Below, one piece after another: positions 3 to 10,456 of a DNA stretch of 36,378 nt. The notes below the pieces were generated by a model. The model searched no databases. It worked only from the letters and a program-made list of their open reading frames with translations, and had not been told where the DNA came from. How positions within the stretch are numbered: position 1 is the stretch's first letter; each line of letters opens with the position of its first letter. Source of the stretch: Myxococcota bacterium (lineage in GTDB: Bacteria; Myxococcota_A; UBA796; GCA-2862545); the NCBI GenBank assembly GCA_039208735.1, contig JBCCQY010000090.1, positions 1-36,378 on the forward strand. The letters run 5' to 3'. Position numbers and translations under genes: made by a program.

Positions 3-1190
3 ACGAAGTTCGTTCGGGTCCGCCTCGACAAAGTCACGAACCTCATGTCGTTGGCCGGCGAAATCGGCCGGGCTCTCGGAACCGTACTGGACCTCCCTGC
101 GGTGCGGGCCGAAATCGAACGCGAGGATGTCGGTGCCGTCGCGGACCGCCTCGAAGGTCTGATTCGCGATCTGCAAGACGGAAGCGCGAGCCTTCGCCTC
201 GTCCCCATTTCGAACGCCTTCGCGCCACTGAATCGCGCGGTTCGCGACCTGTCGATGCGGACCGGAAAGCCCCTCGAGTTGACCACCGAGGGCGAAGACA
301 TTGAGATTGACAAGCTGATGGTGGAGGCGCTGACCGATCCGCTGATTCACCTGGTGCGAAACGCCGCGGACCATGGCATCGAGCCCCCCGATGTACGGGC
401 CGACATGGGCAAGCCCAAGGGTGGGCGCCTACACCTGTCGGCCCATCACCGGGGTGACCACGTGATGGTGCTCATTCAAGACGATGGACGCGGTCTTGAC
501 CGGCAGGGCATCCTTGACAAGGCCATTCGCCAAGGGCTCATCACGCCTGAGGTCAGCGCCGAACTCCCCGATCGGGACGTCTGGGAACTCGTCTTCAAGT
601 CCGGCTTCTCCACCGCATCCGGGGTCTCCGAAATCTCCGGGCGAGGGGTCGGCATGGAGGTGGTCCGAAGCTCGATCGTGGCTCTAGGAGGGACGGTCCG
701 CATCCAAAGTGAAAAGGGCCGCGGCACCACGGTCCAAATGATCTTGCCGCTTACGCTGGCCTTCCTCGATGGGATGGTCGTGCGGTCGGGCGAAGTCACC
801 TACGTGATTCCCATCACCAGCATCGCCCAGGTGTTCCGTGCCGAAGTCAAGGATGTCGAGCGCGTCGAGTCCGAACGCATGGACCTCATCCACGTAGGCG
901 ACGAACTGGTCCGTGGACTGTGCCTCCAGCGCTTCTACGCGCCCGAGAAGCACCCCGAGCCCGTCGATTGGATCGGCCGACTCGTGGTGGTCGTTCGAAC
1001 TTCACGGGGCATGCTCGCGATTCCCATCGACGAGCTGCTCGGGCATGAGAAGGTCACGATGAAGCCGCTGACAGGTCCCCTTGGCGGCATTCGCGCCAGC
1101 GCGGGCTGTGGCCTGCTCCGTTCGGGCGGCGTCGCCATCGCGCTGAACTGCGAATACCTCAACGAACAGTTGCCGGCGGACGACGCTTAG
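3..1190 (+). CDS. cheA: Chemotaxis histidine kinase CheA, 5'-truncated by the window edge
   Basis: Frame is open from position 3 (TKFVRVRLDKVTNLMSLAGE, dimerisation domain). HATPase motifs DPLIHLVRNAADHGIE, IQDDGRGLD and GFSTASGVSEISGRGVGM, then a C-terminal CheW-like domain (LPLTLA…). Confidence 0.95.
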   Translation, partial: TKFVRVRLDKVTNLMSLAGEIGRALGTVLDLPAVRAEIEREDVGAVADRLEGLIRDLQDGSASLRLVPISNAFAPLNRAVRDLSMRTGKPLELTTEGEDIEIDKLMVEALTDPLIHLVRNAADHGIEPPDVRADMGKPKGGRLHLSAHHRGDHVMVLIQDDGRGLDRQGILDKAIRQGLITPEVSAELPDRDVWELVFKSGFSTASGVSEISGRGVGMEVVRSSIVALGGTVRIQSEKGRGTTVQMILPLTLAFLDGMVVRSGEVTYVIPITSIAQVFRAEVKDVERVESERMDLIHVGDELVRGLCLQRFYAPEKHPEPVDWIGRLVVVVRTSRGMLAIPIDELLGHEKVTMKPLTGPLGGIRASAGCGLLRSGGVAIALNCEYLNEQLPADDA

Positions 1191-1953
1191 CCAGCACATT
1201 CACCCCGCTAACGCCGAACTTTCGGGCAACAGCCTCTTTGGAGGTGCCTTCGAAGGTGTCGAAGCGATGGGTGACGCGAACCGATGTGAAGTCCAACTCA
1301 TCGAGCAAACGAAGAAGCTCTGCCTCCGGCAGAGCACCACCGATTCAAGCCGCCCATAGATCGATGTCCGAACGAATCCCCTCCGACAGCTCACTCGCCA
1401 CCACGATGTCCGCGAACTGAAGCCGTCCCGTCGGCTTGAGGACTCGCGCAATCTCCCCAAATGCGACCTCTTTGTCGGGAGCCAGGTTCAGCACACCGTT
1501 GGAGATGACCACATCAACGCTGGCGTCGGGCAAAGGCAGCGCCATCACATCGCCCTCGAGCACGGACACCTGGGGCAACCCTTCGGCGGCCTTCCGAGCC
1601 CGGTCGCGCATCGACGCCGTAAAATCGACACCAATGACCTTCCCCGTTGGTCCCACGGCCTGGGCCGCAACAAGCAGGTCCGTGCCGGTTCCCGAACCGA
1701 TGTCCACCACGGTCTGTCCGGTCGTCAACGGAGCGATGACATGGGGGTTGCCGACCCCGGCGAACGAATCGGTGACCTCGGCCGGCAGCTCCGACAGTAC
1801 CCGGGGGTCGTAGCTCAGGCGCTCGACAGCAAACGACGCTCCGCGGTGGAAGTGAAAGTCACCCTCTGGCTCGAGGGCAACGCGGTGGTAGAGTCGACGA
1901 ACCTCCTCGCGCAGTCGCGCACGGTCGAGGTCGATGGGACAAGCGTAGGCCAT
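1159..1953 (-). CDS. ArsM-like SAM-dependent methyltransferase, putative selenoprotein (U at TGA 1345-1347), 264 aa
   Basis: ATG at 1953 preceded by AGGAGG. SAM motif VVDIGSGTGTD and DVVISNGVLNLAPDK. The TGA lies in DLWAA*IGGAL, matching the LWxGCIxGAL motif of ArsM-like proteins. The frame continues 61 codons (IGGALPEAELLRLLDELDFTSVRVTHRFDTFEGTSKEAVARKFGVSGVNVLAKRRPPATVR) to TGA 1159-1161, and a SECIS-like hairpin follows the internal TGA. Confidence 0.85.
1317..1335 (-). promoter_or_regulatory. Putative bacterial SECIS element of the methyltransferase
   Basis: mRNA reads UGA-AUCGGUGGU-GCUCUGCC-GGA-GGCAGAGC: a perfect 8-bp stem with a G-initiated apical loop 17 nt after the UGA. Confidence 0.75.
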
Positions 1954-2001
1954 GGGTCCTCCTTGCCCCCTCGATGTCACCGAGCGGTCCTTACCACAGG
2001 C

Positions 2002-5000
2002 TTACTGCTCGGCGAGGACCACCCATCCTTCAATCCCCGCGGCCCCCAATCGGTTCATTGCCCCCTCCGCCGCCGCTTCGAGCGCTGCAGCATCGGTCGG
2101 CTTCCCAAGTTCACGAAGGGCGTGGGCCCACACCTGCCGAGTCCGGGCCAATTCGTAGGGCGCCGCGGCCTTGTCGTAGGCCTCGGCCGCGGCCCGCAGT
2201 GCCTCAATGGCATCCGCAGGGGCCCCTCGCGCGACCTGCAACCGACCCCGGGCTTGGGTCGCCATCCCGACCCACGCGAGGCTTCCGTACTCATCGGAAA
2301 GCGCCTCGAGTTCACGGACATGGACTTCGGCCTGGTCCAGGTCGCCGGCCGCGATGGCTACGCGAACGGCCTCAGGCAACAGCAACGCACTGCAGGTCAC
2401 GCACGCCCCATGGCCAGCCGCCACCGCAGCCCCGACCTCCATACACTGCATCGCGGCTGCAATATCCTTAGCCGCGAGCCGATTCCGCGCCATCGAGGCG
2501 TGCATGCGTGTGAGGCAGTGAGACCGCATGGTGGCGCGTTCCGCGACCGCCACGCCATCCGCCAGGATCTCCCAGGCTTCATCGAGTCGACCCATCGCGG
2601 TAAGGAGGACCCCCAGTCGCTGCTGAGACAACGATTCACCCGAAGCCGAGCCGAGTTCACGGTACAAGGTGATGGCTCGTTGAAGGTCTTGCTCGGCCTC
2701 AGCCCAGTCGCCGGATTGGTACGACAACGCACCGCCAAAGTTCAGGCAGAGCGCCTCGGCGCGAGGGGCTCCCATGCGTTTGGCCTGCCCCCGGGTACGG
2801 GCAACCATGTCGATGAGCTGGGCATGTTCGCGATCACCATACAGGTGATACTCCCATAGTCAAAGATGAACGTCGAACGACTGCGCGACGTCGACGGGCC
2901 CTCCCACCAGGGCTTCGCGTTGCGCTTCGTAGCGCTCTCCTTCGTGCCACGACCCAAGCGAATGGCACGCCAGCGCCAGCATCTCGTAGCCACGAGCAAT
3001 CGATTTAGGGTCGCGCGTGCGTTCGGCAGCCGCCAAACAGCTCTCGGCCACCGCATAGGCCTCATCGTGGCGGTTTTGGTGCCATCGCAGCTGCGCCAGG
3101 TAGTACAGCGTGTCGGTGAGCTGAGCGTCGTCGTCGCTGGCCTCGAGCGCTTCGAGCGCCGCCTGGATGCGAACCTCAGCGGGCTCGAGATGGCCGCTCG
3201 TAATGAGGGCCAGCCCCCCGAGCCGCAATGCACGGCCTCGATTCGCCGGACTGGGCGCCCAACCAGCAGACCGCAACTCCGCCGCCCGGTCAAGCGAGGC
3301 CACCGCTGCCTCAAGCTGGGACAGCAACAGCTGGGCTTGTCCAAGTCCAAGCAGGATTTCAAACATCTGCGAATCCGCCGGCTGGTCCCCGAGCAGTTCG
3401 AGCGCCTCGTTGTAGAACGCCACCACCTCGCGCAGACCGGTCTGCTGGCGCGCGCGTTGGGCGGCTTCAATCAAGTACGGAATGGCTCGGTCCACGTCAT
3501 TGGCCAGCCGATGGTGCCGAGCCAACCGCTCGACCCGGTCCGACAGGCGGGGCCACCGCTCCTCGATGTTTCGAGCCACCTCGCGATGCACAAGACGTAG
3601 TCGTGCCGATGTGATGCTGCTGTGGACCGCCTCCTGGACCAACGCATGCCGAAACCGGTATCGGTCGTCGTCCTCGCGGAGCAGGTCCGCATCGAGACAG
3701 CGCTCTAGGGCATCGAGCGCCGATTCCGATCGGAGGCTTGCCACATCCGCCGCCAAGTCGAATTCGAAGTGTTGCCCCACCACCGCGGCGGCCCGCATCA
3801 GTGCGTTCGCATCGTCACCCAGACGATGGATGCGATCGAGGACCGCATCTCGAAGCTCTCCGGGTAAGGCGATCTTTCCCGTTTCCGACCACGCGTGGAC
3901 CAGCTCTTCGACGTAGAACGGGTTCCCCTCCGCCAGATCGTGGATGCGGGCAACGATTGGCGTGGTGGGTGCGTCATTGACCAACTGAGCAATGAAATGG
4001 GAGGTCGTGGCTTGATCGAAGGGCAGTAGATCAATGCGCGTCAGCAACCGTTCTCGATGCAGGGCCGCCACCACGCTGTGCAACGGTGCACCGACGATGA
4101 GCCCTTCGGGCCGCGCAGTGGCGATGAGCACAACCCCCGAAGTTCGCGTTGTGCGCGCCAAGTAGTGGAGCAGGTGAAGGCTCGACCCATCGGCCTGGTG
4201 GAGATCGTCGAGCACCAAACAGACTCGTCGACCCGCTCCAATCGCATTGAGCGCCTGCTCCACGGCCTGGTAAAGCCGCAGCGTGTCGTCCTGAACGGCG
4301 CCCGAAGGCTCAAACGCAAGAAAGGGATTGTCGCCACTACCCGACATTCGGTCCCACGCCGTGAATGCTTCGATGAACGGTGCGAACGGCGGCATGCCTT
4401 CGAAGTCAAGGCCTGCGCCCGCCAGCAAGACGGCGCCATCGGCCTCGGCGAATCGTGCGGCCTCGACCGCAAGACGGGTCTTGCCAATACCAGCCGTGCC
4501 CGTAATCAAGAGCACGCCGCCTTGGGCCTGCGAAAACTCGCGAACTTCATCAAGTTCGGCCTGACGCCCAAGGAGGGGAGCCGGGTCGCGAGTCCCCAAG
4601 AGGATGCGAGAGAGGCGCGGCCAGCCAGACTCCTGCGGCGTAGGCGTACTCCGCGACCGAGACGCCAACGACTCGGCCAGTGCGACGGTGGCTCCAGAGG
4701 GCGAAACCCCACGTTCGGCCAGCGCCTGTTCACAGGTGGTGTATTGGTCCATCGCCTCGGCGATTCGACCGGTGTCCGCGAGCCCTCGCATGAGCAAACG
4801 ATGGGCCTCTTCGATGGCCGTTTCGATGGCCAGCAAATGGCGCAAGACCGCGGTCGCTCGGTCCGGGTGACTGGCGAGGGCCCGGCGCGCGCACCGCAGG
4901 GAGCTGTCGATGAAGTGTTGGCGCAAGGCCTCGATCCGGGCGTCCAACATGTCGAGATCGAGTCCCGGGGTGCCCCGATAGAGGTCGAGCGCCTCCGGAT

Positions 5001-5328
5001 CGTCCGCATGGCAGCCGGCCTCGAAGGCCGCCACATCCACCCAGACGTCCTCGGCGAGCCGCACCTGTGGACCATCGATCGAGACCCAAGGCCCACCTCC
5101 GAGCGCCTTGCGAACGTCGTGCAGTGCACGATGCAGGTTGTTGGCACCTCGGGAGGGGTCCTTACCGGGCCAAAATCCCGAGATCAGATCGGCCTTCGGC
5201 ACCGCGTGCCCCTCGGCCACCGCGAGGGCCGTGAGCAGATCAACGGCTCGCTTCCGGCGCCAGGTGGCGGCCGGAAGGGGTCCATCATCGAGTCGCACTT
5301 CGAACCGACCTAGGACCGACAACCGCAT
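2002..5328 (-). CDS. SARP/BTAD-domain STAND (AAA ATPase)-TPR transcriptional regulator, putative selenoprotein (U823 at TGA 2860-2862), 1108 aa
   Basis: N-terminal wHTH/BTAD (LSVLGRFEV…WRRKRAVDLL…EEAHRLLMRGL), Walker A GTAGIGKT, Walker B LVLDDLH, GNPFYVEEL, FRHALVQE, then TPR-like helices. ORFs 2860..5328 and 2002..2808 are in the same frame and joined by SFDVHL*LWEYHLYGDREHAQLIDMVAR with one TGA, followed by a SECIS-like hairpin. Confidence 0.8.
2833..2849 (-). promoter_or_regulatory. Putative bacterial SECIS element of the STAND regulator
   Basis: mRNA reads UGA-CUAUGGGAGU-AUCACC-UGUAU-GGUGAU: a 6-bp stem with a GU-containing loop 16 nt after the UGA. It may extend via a bulged U and a G-C pair. 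Confidence 0.65.
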
Positions 5329-5439
5329 CCAATCTCCATTGTTCGGCAGACCTTACCGCATGGGGAGGGTCCTGGGTCAGCCAGGAGTAAGGAGGACTCG
5401 GCGACAGTTCGAGTGCCAAGCAAAAACGGAGGCATTCCA

Positions 5440-5811
5440 ATGTCGCTCAACAACAATGCCAAGCTCGTCGTCGTTCTCACTCAACATGGTGGCCATGACA
5501 CCGCAACGGTTGGGTTTACCATTGCCAACGCGGCGCTCTCCCAAGGCAAGGACGTGGCAATCTTCCTGACGTCGGACGCCGTGGACCTCGCCCGTCAGGG
5601 CGCGAATGACCTAGCTGAAGTCCGACCCTTCCGCCCTCTAGCCAGCCTCATCGAGGACTTCACGGCCCATGGCGGCGTGGTATGGGCGTGCTCGCCTTGC
5701 TTCCAACATCGTGGCCAGCGCGTTGAAGACAACGTCGATGGGGTGACCGTGACGGGCGCGGGACCCATGCTCGAATGGATCGACGCCGGCGCGTCGACCA
5801 TCTGTTTGTAA
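5440..5811 (+). CDS. DsrE/DsrF-family protein
   Basis: GGAGG before ATG 5440. DsrE-like pattern TVGFTIANAAL…VAIFLTSDAVDLA…GGVVWACSPCFQHRG (CxxC). Confidence 0.85.
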   Translation: MSLNNNAKLVVVLTQHGGHDTATVGFTIANAALSQGKDVAIFLTSDAVDLARQGANDLAEVRPFRPLASLIEDFTAHGGVVWACSPCFQHRGQRVEDNVDGVTVTGAGPMLEWIDAGASTICL

Positions 5812-5817
5812 GCCGCC

Positions 5818-6993
5818 ATGCCCCCGGTCTACCTCGACCATGCGGCCACCACTCAGGTGGACGAATCCGTCCTCGCGGCGATGCTGCCCGCGTTCCGTGA
5901 GGCCTTTGGCAACCCGGCGAGCCGGGGTCATGCGATAGGCCGACGCGCATCAAAAGCGGTCGATGACGCGCGATTTGCTGTCGCAACCTTGATCGGTGCG
6001 CGATCGATGCGCGACATCCTGTTTACCTCGGGGGCCACCGAGGCCAACAACCTCGCACTGAGCGGGCTTCTTCGGCCGGGGGCCCACCTCATCACCGCCC
6101 GCACGGAGCACAAGTCCGTTCTCGATACGGCATTGCACCTGACCCAGCACGGGGTCACGGTCACGGTGTTGGACGTGCAACCCGATGGTCGGGTCGACCC
6201 GGCCGCCGTCGCAGCCGCGCTCCGCCCCGAGACCGCGCTGGTCAGTCTGATGTTGGTGAACAACGAAACCGGTGCCCGACATCCCATCGAGGCTATCTCT
6301 CCGATCGTCCAGCAGGCCGGCGTGCCGCTGCACGTCGACGGCACCCAGGCGGTGGGTCAACTTCCCGTGGAGGTGCAGACCATGGGGATCGACCTGCTCA
6401 GCCTCTCTGGCCATAAGCTGTATGGCCCCATGGGTGTCGGAGCCCTGTACATTCGGCGGGAAGTGCGCCGTCATCTCGTCCCCATGCTCCGCGGAGGAGC
6501 ACAAGAGGGCGGGACACGGGCGGGTACCCTCAACGTGCCGGGCATCGTGGGCCTGGGCGCAGCCTGTCAACTTGCCACAGACGTGTTGCCTGCCACAGAA
6601 CCACAGATTCGGCACCTCCGGCAGCGCCTATGGGCGGGCCTAAAGCCACTCGGCCGGGTGCATCGTCAGGGGCCAACCGACGAAGCAGCCCTCGCCCCTG
6701 GGATCCTCAACGTCGCGTTTGAAGGCGCCGACCGCAGCGCCGTACTCCCCCGAATCCCCGAACTCGCGGTGTCGGGCGGCAGCGCGTGCACCGAAGGGTC
6801 ACTCGCCATCAGCCATGTGTTGGACGCGATGGGCGTCTCTGCCGAGCGCGCCAAGACGGTCATCCGCTTCAGCCTCGGTCGCCACACCACAGCCGAAGCT
6901 ATCGATTTCACGATCGACCGGATGACCGCAGCCGTGCAAGCGGTCCGTCAGAGCGATTCGAGGCACAGGGATGCTTCACCGCGGTCAAGGTGA
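5818..6993 (+). CDS. NifS/IscS-like (group I) PLP-dependent cysteine desulfurase
   Basis: YLDHAATT, FTSGATEANN, VNNETG, HVDGTQ, SGHKLYGPMGVG (PLP Lys), RAGTLNV and SGGSACT (catalytic Cys). Starts 6 nt after the dsrE stop. Confidence 0.93.
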   Translation: MPPVYLDHAATTQVDESVLAAMLPAFREAFGNPASRGHAIGRRASKAVDDARFAVATLIGARSMRDILFTSGATEANNLALSGLLRPGAHLITARTEHKSVLDTALHLTQHGVTVTVLDVQPDGRVDPAAVAAALRPETALVSLMLVNNETGARHPIEAISPIVQQAGVPLHVDGTQAVGQLPVEVQTMGIDLLSLSGHKLYGPMGVGALYIRREVRRHLVPMLRGGAQEGGTRAGTLNVPGIVGLGAACQLATDVLPATEPQIRHLRQRLWAGLKPLGRVHRQGPTDEAALAPGILNVAFEGADRSAVLPRIPELAVSGGSACTEGSLAISHVLDAMGVSAERAKTVIRFSLGRHTTAEAIDFTIDRMTAAVQAVRQSDSRHRDASPRSR

Positions 6994-7865
6994 ATGGAAT
7001 CCCAGGTTCGACCGCACTCGTGTTGGTCGTCTTCCATCGAAGGACAGGTGTCACGAATCGCGCAGTAATGGCGCATCTGCAGCACGTTCTCACTACTTCC
7101 GTCGAAGTAGAACGTGCCCAAGTACACCCGATCCGGGATGCGACCATCGTTGTCGTAATCCTGAACGATGTACTCACCGTTGCAATTTCCTTCGAGCGGC
7201 AGACCCGCAGGATTTGCTTCATTGTACACGCGGTAGTAGCCGGACTCGTTGCGCTGGCTGGCCCCCGATTCCGCCACCTCGTTCTTGTAGACGGCGTACC
7301 ACCCCTCGCGGGGCACATCTTCGAGGGTCACTTCTACCGTTGCGGAAAAATCGCGCTTGCTAATCCCCTTTCGCGGCCGCCTATAGTTCACCGATGAATC
7401 ACAATCATCGGCGTCAAACACGCGAGGGAGCGTGTCGCTGATGGCAATTCCTGAAAGGTCCACCCCGGTCACGCCGAAGAACCCACCAAACACGGTGTTG
7501 AGCGCACGGTCCCCGGTACGGCGGACGGTGGCTTGCGTGGCTTCGATTTCGGCGTTGCTCACTAACGTTCCACTCTTGCGATCGACGGTGCCCCAGGTCA
7601 GCGGCTCTAGCACGAACGTGCCTCCGTCCTTGGCGACGTAGGCGCGGACGAGTTGATCCGCGATGGCCTGTGCCTCGGAGGTCGTGTGACCTTTGTTGTA
7701 GGCAACGATGGCCGTCTGCGCGGCGGAGTACGCCACGAGTTCGGCTTCACTGGCCGCCAATGACGCGCGTGTCAGGTCGATCGAAAGTGCGCCCACGGCG
7801 ATGACCGGAACCACGCCTGCCGCAAGCAACATCGCATATTGTCCCCTTCGGCCTTGAAGCTGCAC
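6948..7865 (-). CDS. TadG-like (Flp pilus assembly) protein with an unassigned C-terminal domain
   Basis: GTG 7865 after GGAGG. RRGQYAMLL…GALSIDL…SAAQTA resembles the TadG N-terminal pseudopilin-like segment. The C-terminus is Cys/Asp-rich and probably extracellular. Confidence 0.6.
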   Translation of the reverse strand: MQLQGRRGQYAMLLAAGVVPVIAVGALSIDLTRASLAASEAELVAYSAAQTAIVAYNKGHTTSEAQAIADQLVRAYVAKDGGTFVLEPLTWGTVDRKSGTLVSNAEIEATQATVRRTGDRALNTVFGGFFGVTGVDLSGIAISDTLPRVFDADDCDSSVNYRRPRKGISKRDFSATVEVTLEDVPREGWYAVYKNEVAESGASQRNESGYYRVYNEANPAGLPLEGNCNGEYIVQDYDNDGRIPDRVYLGTFYFDGSSENVLQMRHYCAIRDTCPSMEDDQHECGRTWDSIHLDRGEASLCLESL

Positions 7866-7990
7866 GAATCCACCTCCACAGCGCAATGGATCACGCCGAC
7901 TCCTCAGACGTACCAACGTTCGGAAAATCCGCCAAGAAATTGCCCGAGATCTATTCTTTCATAAGACCACACATTCGCCAGGTTCGCGAT

Positions 7991-10456
7991 TTACGCGTCT
8001 CGGCCGACGCGGGCAATCGCGTCACGGATCCGCGAGTTGCCGAGAAGTCCACGCTCCTGGGCCAATCGCCGCGCCGCCTCGACCATCTCGTCGGCTTCGG
8101 GGTCTTCATCGACCGATCGCAAGGCGGCGGCAAGCTCACAATACGCCTTGATGTGGAGATAGGCACTTCCCAATTGGCCAAGTTCGTCCACACCCTTGCG
8201 CAGCAGCGACAAGGCTTCCGTTGGCGCACCCTCTTGCAAGCGCAACTTGCCGTAGAGCAGGTTGCCGACCGCTCGTGTGATGGCGAGAGGGCCCGTCGCG
8301 GTCAACGCCCGGGCTTCGGTTAGGCGAATGCGCGCCTCTGGGGCGTCCTCAAGTTCAAGCAACAAGTCGGAGGCCGCAATGAGGCACGAGGCGAGGCCTC
8401 CCGCCTCCCCAAGCGCCCGGTGGGCATCCGCCCCTTCCGCGTAGGCGGCCACTGCATCAGCCGCCTTCCCTTCAACCCGGTAGGCCGCCGCCACATTCGC
8501 CAAGAGCAACGCCAAGTCAGGACGAGCCCCCACCTCGATGAGCCCCGTACGGGCCTGTTCGTTGTGGTGGGTCGCGAGCCCTGGTTCACCAGATTGGACG
8601 TACTGAATTCCGAGTTCAAGATGCGCATGGGCGGCTTTGTAGACTTCGCCGGCACCTTCGAGCACCCGTACCGCACCCGCCGCCACCCGACGTGCTTCAT
8701 CGAAGTTCCCTCGCTTACGAGCTCGCGTGGCAAGCGACAATTGGATGACCCCTTGAAGTCGAGCGGAAAGGGCATCGCGCAGGGCTTCCGTCAACATCGA
8801 AGTGGCGATTTCGCCTTCCCCTTGGGCCGCGAGTTGGCCCGCGCGACAATACACGCCAAGCGCCCGGACATCGGGTTCTTGGGCGAGTTGCGAGACCTCG
8901 GCAAGCTCGGCATCCATACCCGTCCGATCGAGGTCAAAACGCGCCTGGCAGCGGCACAAAATCGCGCGGGCCCGATCGTTCGGGGCCAGGTTGTCGAGCG
9001 CCAAGACCGCATCCGCCAATGGCAGGACGACTTCGACAAAGCCGCCGAGTTGTGCGGCTCGACGGACCCCCTCGAGGCATCCTACGGCGACGTCTGGCAT
9101 GGCCAGCTCGGTGGCCGCACGACATGCCGCGATGAGGTTCGCCGTTTCGGTCAGATGCGCCTTTCGCTCGGGTAGCTGCCCAAACCGCGCGAGTGCTGTG
9201 GCATGTGCACTTCGCAGATTTGCATCCTCGAACCCCGCTCGGCGACGCACGCTGTGGAGCAGGGTGAGTCGTGGCCGCCCCTTGATGGGGGTCCGCTGGA
9301 TCATGGACGCTTGCGCGAGGCTCTGCAGAACATGAACGACCGGTCGCCCATCGGCCGGAGGGGACAACACCGCTTCGGCCAACGGGAGATCGAAGCCTTC
9401 TTCGAAGACCGACAGTTCGGTCAAGGCGAGCCGCTCGACCGGGTCGAGCAACGCAAACGACCGTTCCAAGACATCGTCGAGCGACAACGGCCCAGCGCCC
9501 GCCTTGATGCGCCGGGACAATTCCGACAGCTCGAAGACGCCAAGCCACGGGGCCACGAGTTCGATGGCCAGGGGAAGGCGATCGAGGCGTTCCACCAGCC
9601 CGAGTACCTCGTCGTCGGCGCCCACCGTCGTCCATCCTTGGCGAGCGGCGTGGTGCTGCAGCAGGCTCACCGCATCCGCGGGCGGAAGCGGGCTCAATCG
9701 AACCACATGTTCGTCGCGCAGACCCAACACCCGTCGCGATGTCACGACCACACGGAGGTTCGAAGCGACAGACCTCAGCCCTGCAACCACTTCGGCCACC
9801 GCTTGCGTGACCGGCTCCGCTTCGTCGATGACGAGCAACCGGGGCGACGGCTCGAGGGCGAGGGCTTGGCCAAGCGCCGCCACCTCCGCCGTTCCGAGTG
9901 GGATTCCTGCCGCCCTGGCCACCCTCTGGACAATGTCCCGAACGCCACGTGCATCGAGCACCGACACCGTCACGGCGCGGTAGTCCACCAACCGGAGCAC
10001 AAGCTCACGAGCCGCCCGCGACTTCCCGACGCCCGCAGGTCCGGTAATCACCACGAGCGGCGTCTGTTTGACGAGGGCAACGAGCGACGACACGACGTCT
10101 TCCTGCCCCACCCACCGGTCGTCGGTGCGCATCTCGGGAAGCTCGGGTTCGGGCCGAGGCACAAAACGGTAGCCCTGACCGCGAACGGCCAACAGGTGGT
10201 CCGGCGCCCACGGCTCGAGTTCCACCTTCTTACGCAGGGTGACCATCGTCTTGTCCACCGCGCGCGAGACCACCGTGGCCGCATAGCCGAACACTTCGAC
10301 GAGAAGTTCCTCTCGGGGCACCACTTGGTGAGGGCGCTCCGCCAGGTACCGCAACAGTCCAAGTTCCCGACCGGTGAGGCGACGCGTCTCGCCACCTCCT
10401 TCGACGGAACCCGAGCCAAAATCAACGTTGCAACGGAAGAGCGAGACGCGTTCCAC
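7991..10456 (-). CDS. OmpR-type winged-helix + ATPase + TPR transcriptional regulator
   Basis: LTGRELGLLRYL…VVPREELLVEVFGY…VRGQGYRF (Trans_reg_C), Walker A GPAGVGKS, VVVTSRRVL, LDRLPLAIEL, TPR-like C-terminus. Confidence 0.88.
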   Translation of the reverse strand: MERVSLFRCNVDFGSGSVEGGGETRRLTGRELGLLRYLAERPHQVVPREELLVEVFGYAATVVSRAVDKTMVTLRKKVELEPWAPDHLLAVRGQGYRFVPRPEPELPEMRTDDRWVGQEDVVSSLVALVKQTPLVVITGPAGVGKSRAARELVLRLVDYRAVTVSVLDARGVRDIVQRVARAAGIPLGTAEVAALGQALALEPSPRLLVIDEAEPVTQAVAEVVAGLRSVASNLRVVVTSRRVLGLRDEHVVRLSPLPPADAVSLLQHHAARQGWTTVGADDEVLGLVERLDRLPLAIELVAPWLGVFELSELSRRIKAGAGPLSLDDVLERSFALLDPVERLALTELSVFEEGFDLPLAEAVLSPPADGRPVVHVLQSLAQASMIQRTPIKGRPRLTLLHSVRRRAGFEDANLRSAHATALARFGQLPERKAHLTETANLIAACRAATELAMPDVAVGCLEGVRRAAQLGGFVEVVLPLADAVLALDNLAPNDRARAILCRCQARFDLDRTGMDAELAEVSQLAQEPDVRALGVYCRAGQLAAQGEGEIATSMLTEALRDALSARLQGVIQLSLATRARKRGNFDEARRVAAGAVRVLEGAGEVYKAAHAHLELGIQYVQSGEPGLATHHNEQARTGLIEVGARPDLALLLANVAAAYRVEGKAADAVAAYAEGADAHRALGEAGGLASCLIAASDLLLELEDAPEARIRLTEARALTATGPLAITRAVGNLLYGKLRLQEGAPTEALSLLRKGVDELGQLGSAYLHIKAYCELAAALRSVDEDPEADEMVEAARRLAQERGLLGNSRIRDAIARVGRDA

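Follow-up and report, generated by a model that had tools for sequence, protein, structure and literature searches.

A predicted selenocysteine in the sensor region of an AfsR-like transcriptional regulator encoded beside a methyltransferase gene in a Myxococcota bacterium

A 36,378-nt stretch of DNA from a Myxococcota bacterium (GenBank assembly GCA_039208735.1, contig JBCCQY010000090.1, positions 1-36,378), hereafter called the window, carries on its minus strand a regulator gene interrupted by an in-frame TGA, with a methyltransferase gene directly downstream and a dsrE-nifS pair divergent from it. A previous sequence-only reading had proposed that the open reading frames (ORFs) on either side of this TGA, at 2860-5328 (822 aa) and 2002-2808 (268 aa) and separated by 17 codons, are one frame split by a single TGA. 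Indeed, translation of 2002-5328 (minus strand) gave a single 1108-codon frame with one internal stop only, the TGA at 2860-2862 (codon 823), in the context FDVHL-(stop)-LWEYHLYGD. The product resembles the large Streptomyces antibiotic regulatory proteins (SARPs), with a nucleoside triphosphatase (NTPase) core of the signal transduction ATPase with numerous domains (STAND) type and a tetratricopeptide repeat (TPR) region, in which the UGA is predicted to encode selenocysteine (Sec) with the help of a SECIS (selenocysteine insertion sequence) hairpin. The gene has the following features.

2002-5328, minus strand: full regulator gene, 1108-aa AfsR-like large SARP with predicted Sec823 (translation, Pfam, homolog alignment, codon census, profile match)
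4669-5328, minus strand: SARP effector region, N-terminal winged helix and BTAD (Pfam BTAD aa 112-220; Pfam and profile matches)
4123-4575, minus strand: STAND-type NTPase core, AAA_16 aa 252-402 (Pfam, above cut-off)
4477-4500, minus strand: Walker A, GTAGIGKT, aa 277-284 (motif in translation)
4204-4218, minus strand: Walker B, LVLDD, aa 371-375 (motif in translation)
2005-3492, minus strand: TPR sensor region, about aa 613-1108, cut mid-way by the UGA (Pfam TPR_MalT aa 866-1083, TPR_12 aa 863-930)
2860-2862, minus strand: in-frame UGA, predicted selenocysteine 823 (homolog codon census and Sec machinery)
2832-2850, minus strand: predicted SECIS hairpin UAUCACC-UGUAU-GGUGAUC, stem from 9 nt past the UGA, loop 16 nt past the UGA, G at loop position 2
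2392-2520, minus strand: His937 and Cys976-x-x-Cys979, putative metal/thiol ligands with the highest conservation, retained also where relatives lack Cys823

Pfam models lie on both sides of the stop, with BTAD (aa 112-220) and AAA_16 (aa 252-402) before it and TPR models (aa 863-1083) after it. The regulator family profile matches AfsR chains 8k60 and 8jke (E 1e-23) as well as EmbR 2fez. Pfam Trans_reg_C matches many homologs and has no match in the regulator itself at E<0.001; the winged helix of the regulator is thus supported through its homologs and the AfsR profile match. STAND NTPases are characterized by Walker A, Walker B, a GxP motif and the terminal His of a winged-helix domain. Besides both Walker motifs, the translated regulator contains GNP (aa 468-470) and RFRH (aa 558-561) for the latter two, and its predicted domains follow the large-SARP order of N-terminal winged helix and BTAD, NOD (nucleotide-binding oligomerization domain) and TPR. 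Shorter relatives (P0072-P0092, ~670-750 aa) have BTAD and the same H-L-C-L-W-E-Y sensor with no AAA domain match, and therefore the sensor can function without the NTPase. A second winged-helix and STAND-type regulator (Trans_reg_C, AAA_22) lies nearby at 7991-10456 (minus strand) and is not closely related to the 1108-aa regulator.

The residue at position 823 was examined across homologs, which are found in Chloroflexota, Myxococcota, Acidobacteriota, Balneolota, Rhodothermota and Pseudomonadota. A protein search with regulator residues 700-1108 as query gave 120 matches, in which site 823 is Cys in 93, the chain ends exactly before the site in 13 (the window's own product and 12 more whose last residues are ..D[VA]HL), and 14 have other residues. 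In a GTDB scan with the site codon left free, 108 matches were obtained, and removal of three non-homologous ones in closed frames left 105 homologous loci with TGA (60), TGC (32) or TGT (13) and never TAA, TAG or TGG. A metagenome scan allowing TAA, TAG, TGA or TGG (one non-homologous TAA match dropped) added at least 119 homologous loci, all TGA among the matches listed. Together, the matches listed comprise 179 homologous TGA loci and 45 Cys loci, and no TAA, TAG or TGG at the site. The true stops of the same genes, in 94 distinct loci running at least 240 codons further, are TGA in 46, TAA in 27 and TAG in 21. The sequence-only reading had held that homologs with a non-Cys sense codon, or conservation as two genes with variable stop codons, would contradict it; neither check did so: the residues other than Cys fall in one distant group, and TAA or TAG, absent at the site in the 179 TGA loci listed, makes up 48/94 of the true stops. 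The UGA thus aligns with a conserved Cys, and no alternative stop occurs there in other organisms, as would be expected of a selenoprotein.

TGA forms share 32-100% identity (median 61%). A tree of 126 rows, made non-redundant at 80% and built with the site masked, requires at least seven Sec/Cys changes, every one forced by well-supported (starred) branches; the tree does not tell gain from loss. Among the best 150 50%-identity cluster representatives, 37 end at D.H[L/P/F], and Cys occupies the site in 52 of the 76 others aligned full-length by blastp. NCBI correspondingly annotates a truncated form, e.g. MFZ5478157.1 (792 aa). More distant representatives P0183, P0188 and P0260 end at the same position in DVHH, DVHV or DAHY and likely represent additional Sec subfamilies that the DNA patterns did not pick up. 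A few loci break earlier than 240 codons past the site (e.g. L009, L017, L177). SECIS-like stems also occur in two Cys-codon copies, intact in L096 and partly decayed in L011, which suggests a recent change from Sec to Cys; genome G012 holds L096 together with the TGA copy L017. A phylum-wide pattern search of 400 genomes gave one other match, non-homologous, and no extra close Cys controls, and a plasmid search for the regulator gave a single weak N-terminal match.

The sequence-only reading had also pointed to a hairpin, AUCACC-UGUAU-GGUGAU, within the 17 intervening codons, and this core hairpin was located at 2849-2833. The bacterial SECIS criteria in the accessible text of PMC13188914 are a 3-9 nt loop with G in its first two positions, a 4-16 bp stem, 16-37 nt spacing and a minimum free energy of at most -7.5. 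In loop (UGUAU, 5 nt), stem (6 bp), spacing (16 nt) and energy (-7.5 kcal/mol alone, -11.6 in context), the window hairpin agrees with all four of these criteria as given there, spacing and energy sitting at their limits. The codons following the UGA are nearly fixed in 151 distinct TGA loci, with TAT at +4 (151), CAC at +5 (151), CTG at +6 (149) and GGT at +8 (150/150 covered), against background frequencies of 0.46, 0.58, 0.41 and 0.17 in the same genes; the search patterns permitted alternative codons at the silent sites, and the loci are mutually related, their counts not being independent events. TAT, CAC and GGT occur together in 150/151 TGA loci versus 4/45 Cys loci. This silent-site fixation gives a stem of 5-7 bp in the TGA loci, whose inner five pairs are intact in 148/150 TGA loci and 1/45 Cys loci; even among the eight Cys loci sharing YHLYG, only one keeps the stem. 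Therefore, it is silent-site conservation (TAT, CAC, GGT), not energy, that places the hairpin beyond chance. A genome-wide scan for UGA, 9 nt and a perfect 7-bp stem gave nine matches, no more than other spacings (3-15), so this geometry alone is not diagnostic. On contig C215 of the source genome (~6643, plus strand), a DsbA-like gene contains DYI-U-PWCY and has a hairpin, likewise with 9-nt spacing; it is a probable further selenoprotein gene of this genome.

SelA, SelB and SelD, the last with a UGA in its own gene, are encoded in the source genome, as is tRNA-Sec, and no other tRNA with a TCA anticodon was found there; these are the components of Sec machinery expected where a bacterial selenoprotein is made. 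Across 101 genomes (103 of the 105 homologous GTDB loci submitted, two assigned by shared assembly prefix; the TGA genomes G041, G051 and G061 in these counts are unpublished and no conclusion rests on them), SelA is present in 54/58 genomes with a TGA copy versus 11/43 Cys-only genomes. The four TGA genomes without SelA all carry SelB, three of them with tRNA-Sec over the cut-off, and SelA or SelB is found in 58/58 TGA genomes; 32/43 Cys-only genomes have neither. These data make selenocysteine decoding at UGA 823 very probable as far as genome comparison can tell.

The genes and putative operators around the regulator are as follows.

1159-1953, minus strand: ArsM-like S-adenosylmethionine methyltransferase, 264 aa, directly downstream of the regulator, predicted Sec203 (UGA 1345-1347, WAA-U-IGG) at the ArsM Cys224 position
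1317-1335, minus strand: predicted methyltransferase SECIS GCUCUGC-CGGAG-GCAGAGC, 9-nt spacer and 7-bp stem position as in the regulator
1975-2005, minus strand: putative methyltransferase operator, GTAAG-N6-GTAAG (11-bp period, overlapping the regulator stop), then GA-N3-CTCGGTGACA (repeat pattern)
5376-5406, plus strand: GTCAG-N6-GTAAG followed by GA-N3-CTCGGCGACA, putative operator for the divergent dsrE-nifS genes (repeat pattern)
5440-5811, plus strand: DsrE-family protein, CxxC, no UGA, divergent from the regulator, likely target
5818-6993, plus strand: IscS/NifS-like cysteine desulfurase, after dsrE (domain match)

The methyltransferase, predicted to be the second selenoprotein of the locus, adjoins the regulator in 85/131 loci of at least 3 kb and in 63/76 loci with 2.5 kb downstream. 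Its site codon is TGA in 42 and Cys in 12 of 54 scored TGA-regulator loci, and Cys in 23/23 Cys-regulator loci. It best resembles arsenite methyltransferase models and structures, falling below all ArsM family cut-offs (201 vs 263 bits). In alignment to solved ArsM, only the Cys224 position is kept (U/C); Gly stands at the Cys174 position in 85/85 loci, and T, V or L takes the place of Cys72. According to the accessible text of PMC6138428, Cys174 and Cys224 of ArsM form the arsenic-binding pair, and Cys72 and Cys174 are needed for As(III) methylation/binding. The predicted protein thus lacks two of the three ArsM cysteines, and because the Cys174 equivalent of the pair described there is lost, it is not a standard arsenite methyltransferase. 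Other neighbours in 132 loci are OsmC-like proteins (56), DsrE (up to 27, in a cluster with some stray frames; 10/131 loci by strict tblastn) and metallo-beta-lactamase (MBL)-fold/rhodanese proteins (10), and there are no ars genes among the 45 commonest neighbour clusters, of which 13-14 representatives were scanned. The DsrE, OsmC-like and MBL-fold/rhodanese neighbours and the loss of Cys174 point away from classic arsenite methylation.

Two recurrent neighbours have no Pfam or NCBIfam match, a 160-aa hydrophobic, probably membrane protein in 13 loci (L136:3651-4184) and an 85-90 aa His/Cys-containing protein in 11 loci (L151:5415-5681). A second ArsM-like subfamily beside the regulator (L064, L069, L071, L078, L132, L152, L155, L181) ends in ..SEAAFAG and TGA, probably another unannotated Sec site. 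In the window, the read-through end of the methyltransferase gene overlaps by ~30 bases (1159-1190) the 3' end of a convergent CheA-like gene (45-1190, plus strand). A 322-aa ORF at 6948-7916 (minus strand) has no Pfam match; its N-terminus appears to resemble Tad-type pilin assembly proteins.

Downstream of the regulator stop, 82/109 loci have G(T/G)AAG repeats at 11-bp period, a third repeat GG(G/A)AG, 8 bp and a TAT-type -10, and a fixed two-repeat pattern occurs in 54/110 loci versus 0.3% of shuffles. This layout agrees with that of SARP targets in the accessible text of PMC10936776, namely direct repeats of 11-bp period ending 8 bp before the -10. Both window promoters have two repeats 11 bp apart. 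In the 9.4 Mb source genome, the two-repeat pattern has seven occurrences, and the 20-nt element following the repeats is found twice, only before the methyltransferase gene and before dsrE; a scan of this genome with the family matrix gave no credible regulon. At 5346-5357 (minus strand), upstream of where the regulator itself starts, lies a lone GGTAAGG unit, possibly an autoregulation site.

Conservation of the sensor was assessed in 213 C-terminal domains chosen by motif. Outside the motif, W749, E782, G792, W794, G797, G873, C976 and C979 are invariant; H750, R804, R904, H937 and R941 are present in 212/213 domains, C861 in 208 and C788 in 189. H937, C976 and C979 are still present when the alignments are widened, and Cys823 then has a broader distribution than C788 or C861. 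From this pattern we infer a His/Cys/Sec site in the TPR region. Comparison of homologous loci establishes a single protein with a Sec-type UGA and a predicted SECIS element, a conserved candidate target module and a conserved promoter motif.

We propose that the gene would yield one 1108-aa AfsR-like activator, SelB binding the hairpin just past the UGA and Sec being inserted at 823. The SARP head would bind GTAAG-type direct repeats of 11-bp period at neighbouring promoters and activate the ArsM-like Sec/Cys methyltransferase, usually with OsmC-like or DsrE genes; given the motif and the analogy with known SARPs, such binding and activation of the methyltransferase module is likely. As in other STAND proteins, the TPR region may hold the NTPase off until an inducer is sensed. 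Sec/Cys823 with His821, His937 and Cys976/Cys979 would form the sensing site, as a reactive selenol or a metal-selenolate centre, an assignment towards which we lean with moderate confidence. The leading candidates for the signal, put forward tentatively, are thiol-reactive sulfur/selenium species, e.g. persulfide, selenide or a small thiol/selenol; arsenicals or soft metals are doubtful, and other electrophiles take up what remains. On the whole, we hold with good confidence that the regulator is a Sec-containing SARP-STAND activator of its local module. Evenly balanced, in our view, is the broader proposal that these are the first DNA-binding transcription factor family, and the first STAND (NLR-like) receptors, with Sec as sensing residue, in which a Sec-His-Cys TPR centre, covalently modified by sulfur/selenium species or an alkylating electrophile, would turn on a single-Sec methyltransferase module, UGA read-through also tying activator synthesis to selenium supply.

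Several observations weigh against the activator interpretation. The folding energy of the regulator hairpin is not beyond chance (z -0.82 over 50 nt, +0.68 over 80 nt) and, not being significant, was rejected as evidence; nor does the SECIS stem display compensatory covariation, because it is essentially invariant over 150 loci. At 823, the 14 distant relatives, one group with a different motif, have V, I, A, L, T, S or M, as would suit a partly buried residue no less than an exposed sensor. Most of the TGA loci in GTDB come from Chloroflexota (51/60). Eleven Cys-only genomes have SelA, and the machinery association comprises only three phylogenetically independent pairs (sign test p 0.5, underpowered), so it is not significant after correction for kinship. 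The family promoter matrix, whose score no shuffle reached (0/545), was trained and scored on the same loci; it does not match the two promoters of the window, where the first two repeats are retained and the third repeat and the -10 deviate, making these promoters variants. In addition, the cysteine desulfurase is a neighbour in the window only, being found beside the regulator in 0/131 other loci.

Among other explanations, Sec may be real with residue 823 only a structural element or metal ligand of the TPR region, the inducer being a metabolite or protein. This is possible, if rather doubtful: His937 and Cys976/979 are kept where Cys823 is lost, and a distant group has hydrophobic or small residues there, but that group lost Cys788, His828 and Cys861 along with Cys823 as a single event. 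Moreover, costly Sec decoding and fixed silent sites are maintained down to 32% identity, and Sec at a purely structural site is rare.

An unlikely account is that the UGA serves mainly as a selenium-availability switch, a sensor-truncated 822-aa form being made without selenium, so that the selenoprotein target is made only when decodable or a shortage is signalled by the truncated form. The neighbouring genes and promoter motif are retained in Cys orthologs, and because of this the switch is not the best-supported role and residue chemistry appears to be what is conserved (Cys in 52/76 of the aligned representatives). Likewise, 12 TGA-regulator loci drive a Cys methyltransferase. The coupling of regulator and methyltransferase codons (TGA in 42/54 versus 0/23 loci) would suit a switch but is confounded by genome Sec capacity. 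The base after the UGA is C in 151/151 TGA loci, although T is the first base of ~20% of the Leu codons in these genes; as UGA-C is a weak termination context, this points to selection for read-through. A stop at the UGA would remove His937, Cys976/979 and half of the TPR, and AfsR without its TPR still binds DNA and activates in vitro, as described in the accessible text of PMC10936776. The switch idea is compatible with a Sec sensor as a possible, secondary function.

An arsenic- or soft-metal-sensing activator of an arsenite methyltransferase is improbable. The neighbour is indeed closest to arsenite methyltransferase models and structures, and Cys-rich TPR sites could bind As(III), but the sub-threshold ArsM scores, the absence of the Cys72 and Cys174 equivalents in 85/85 loci and the lack of ars genes in the scanned neighbour clusters speak against it. 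Finally, two separate genes with a real UGA stop, a nonsense mutation, a sequencing error or UGA reassigned to Trp/Gly are highly improbable and already refuted by the codon census, since, although databases annotate the truncated form and the first in-frame ATG is at codon +29 in 110/151 TGA loci, that Met also stands in a consensus made up largely of full-length Cys proteins, the Met that the window has at +18 recurs in only 9/148 loci, LWEYHLYGD is conserved although it would lie outside any protein in a two-gene model, the true stops of these genes are most often UGA (46/94), and the sole TCA-anticodon tRNA found is tRNA-Sec.

If the Sec sensor is real, the roles of selenocysteine in catalysis, transport and metal handling would be joined by one in which a transcription factor perceives a signal, and with its natural Sec/Cys pair the family would allow one to ask what a sensor gains from selenium. 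For STAND regulators, whose ligands are mostly unknown, it would also supply an inducer site that is named and can be tested, and with the predicted operator and target module a reporter assay is easily set up. Moreover, the truncation of 37 of the best 150 50%-identity cluster representatives directly in front of the site exposes a systematic annotation error.

Nearly all bacterial selenoproteins catalogued so far are enzymes, transporters or small redox proteins. None of the 119 prokaryotic families in Table 1 of PMC13188914 is a SARP, BTAD, STAND or TPR protein or evidently a transcription factor that binds DNA, in line with the sequence-only reading, which had called Sec in a DNA-binding signalling NTPase unusual; the nearest by name, a 'putative regulatory protein, FmdB family' and a methylated-DNA-protein-cysteine methyltransferase, are different families. 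The regulator shares with the catalogued selenoproteins UGA/Cys pairs, canonical SECIS geometry, restriction to Sec-decoding genomes and clustering with another selenoprotein and, stem covariation aside, appears to have every testable hallmark of a bacterial selenoprotein. No NCBIfam model is above cut-off for it, and no report of the family or class was found in the literature searched; subscription papers, the BSepDB family table and the Haft-Tolstoy text lie outside that scope and could bear on novelty. Term searches of the accessible text of PMC12013277, PMC13326102, PMC13745706 and PMC9312934 likewise found no such regulator family. Apparently, this is a real, widespread, uncatalogued selenoprotein family in a functional class without listed precedent.

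Its neighbour shares the fold and the UxGG site at the Cys224 position with the arsenite methyltransferase selenoproteins (NF008823, NF041536, NF041537, NF047649), but scores below every cut-off and is without the Cys72 and Cys174 equivalents. As for regulators, CstR, SqrR and BigR, thiol-based sulfur sensors, also govern the transcription of selenium/sulfur handling genes, but have unrelated folds and are not described as Sec-containing. LysR_Se/HrsM has in common with the regulator the transcriptional control of selenium/sulfur handling genes, but is of an unrelated fold and is not described as Sec-containing in the accessible text of PMC9312934. The closest counterparts are the AfsR-type large SARPs, which, in the accessible text of PMC10936776, share with the regulator the SARP-NOD/STAND-TPR domain order and with its family the direct repeats of 11-bp period ending 8 bp before the -10. 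In contrast to AfsR, the regulator has a His/Cys-rich TPR with Sec/Cys823, its targets are not antibiotic clusters, and it scores far below the cut-off of the AfsR equivalog NF053617 (32.7 vs 1430 bits). The regulator therefore works like AfsR but is not AfsR.

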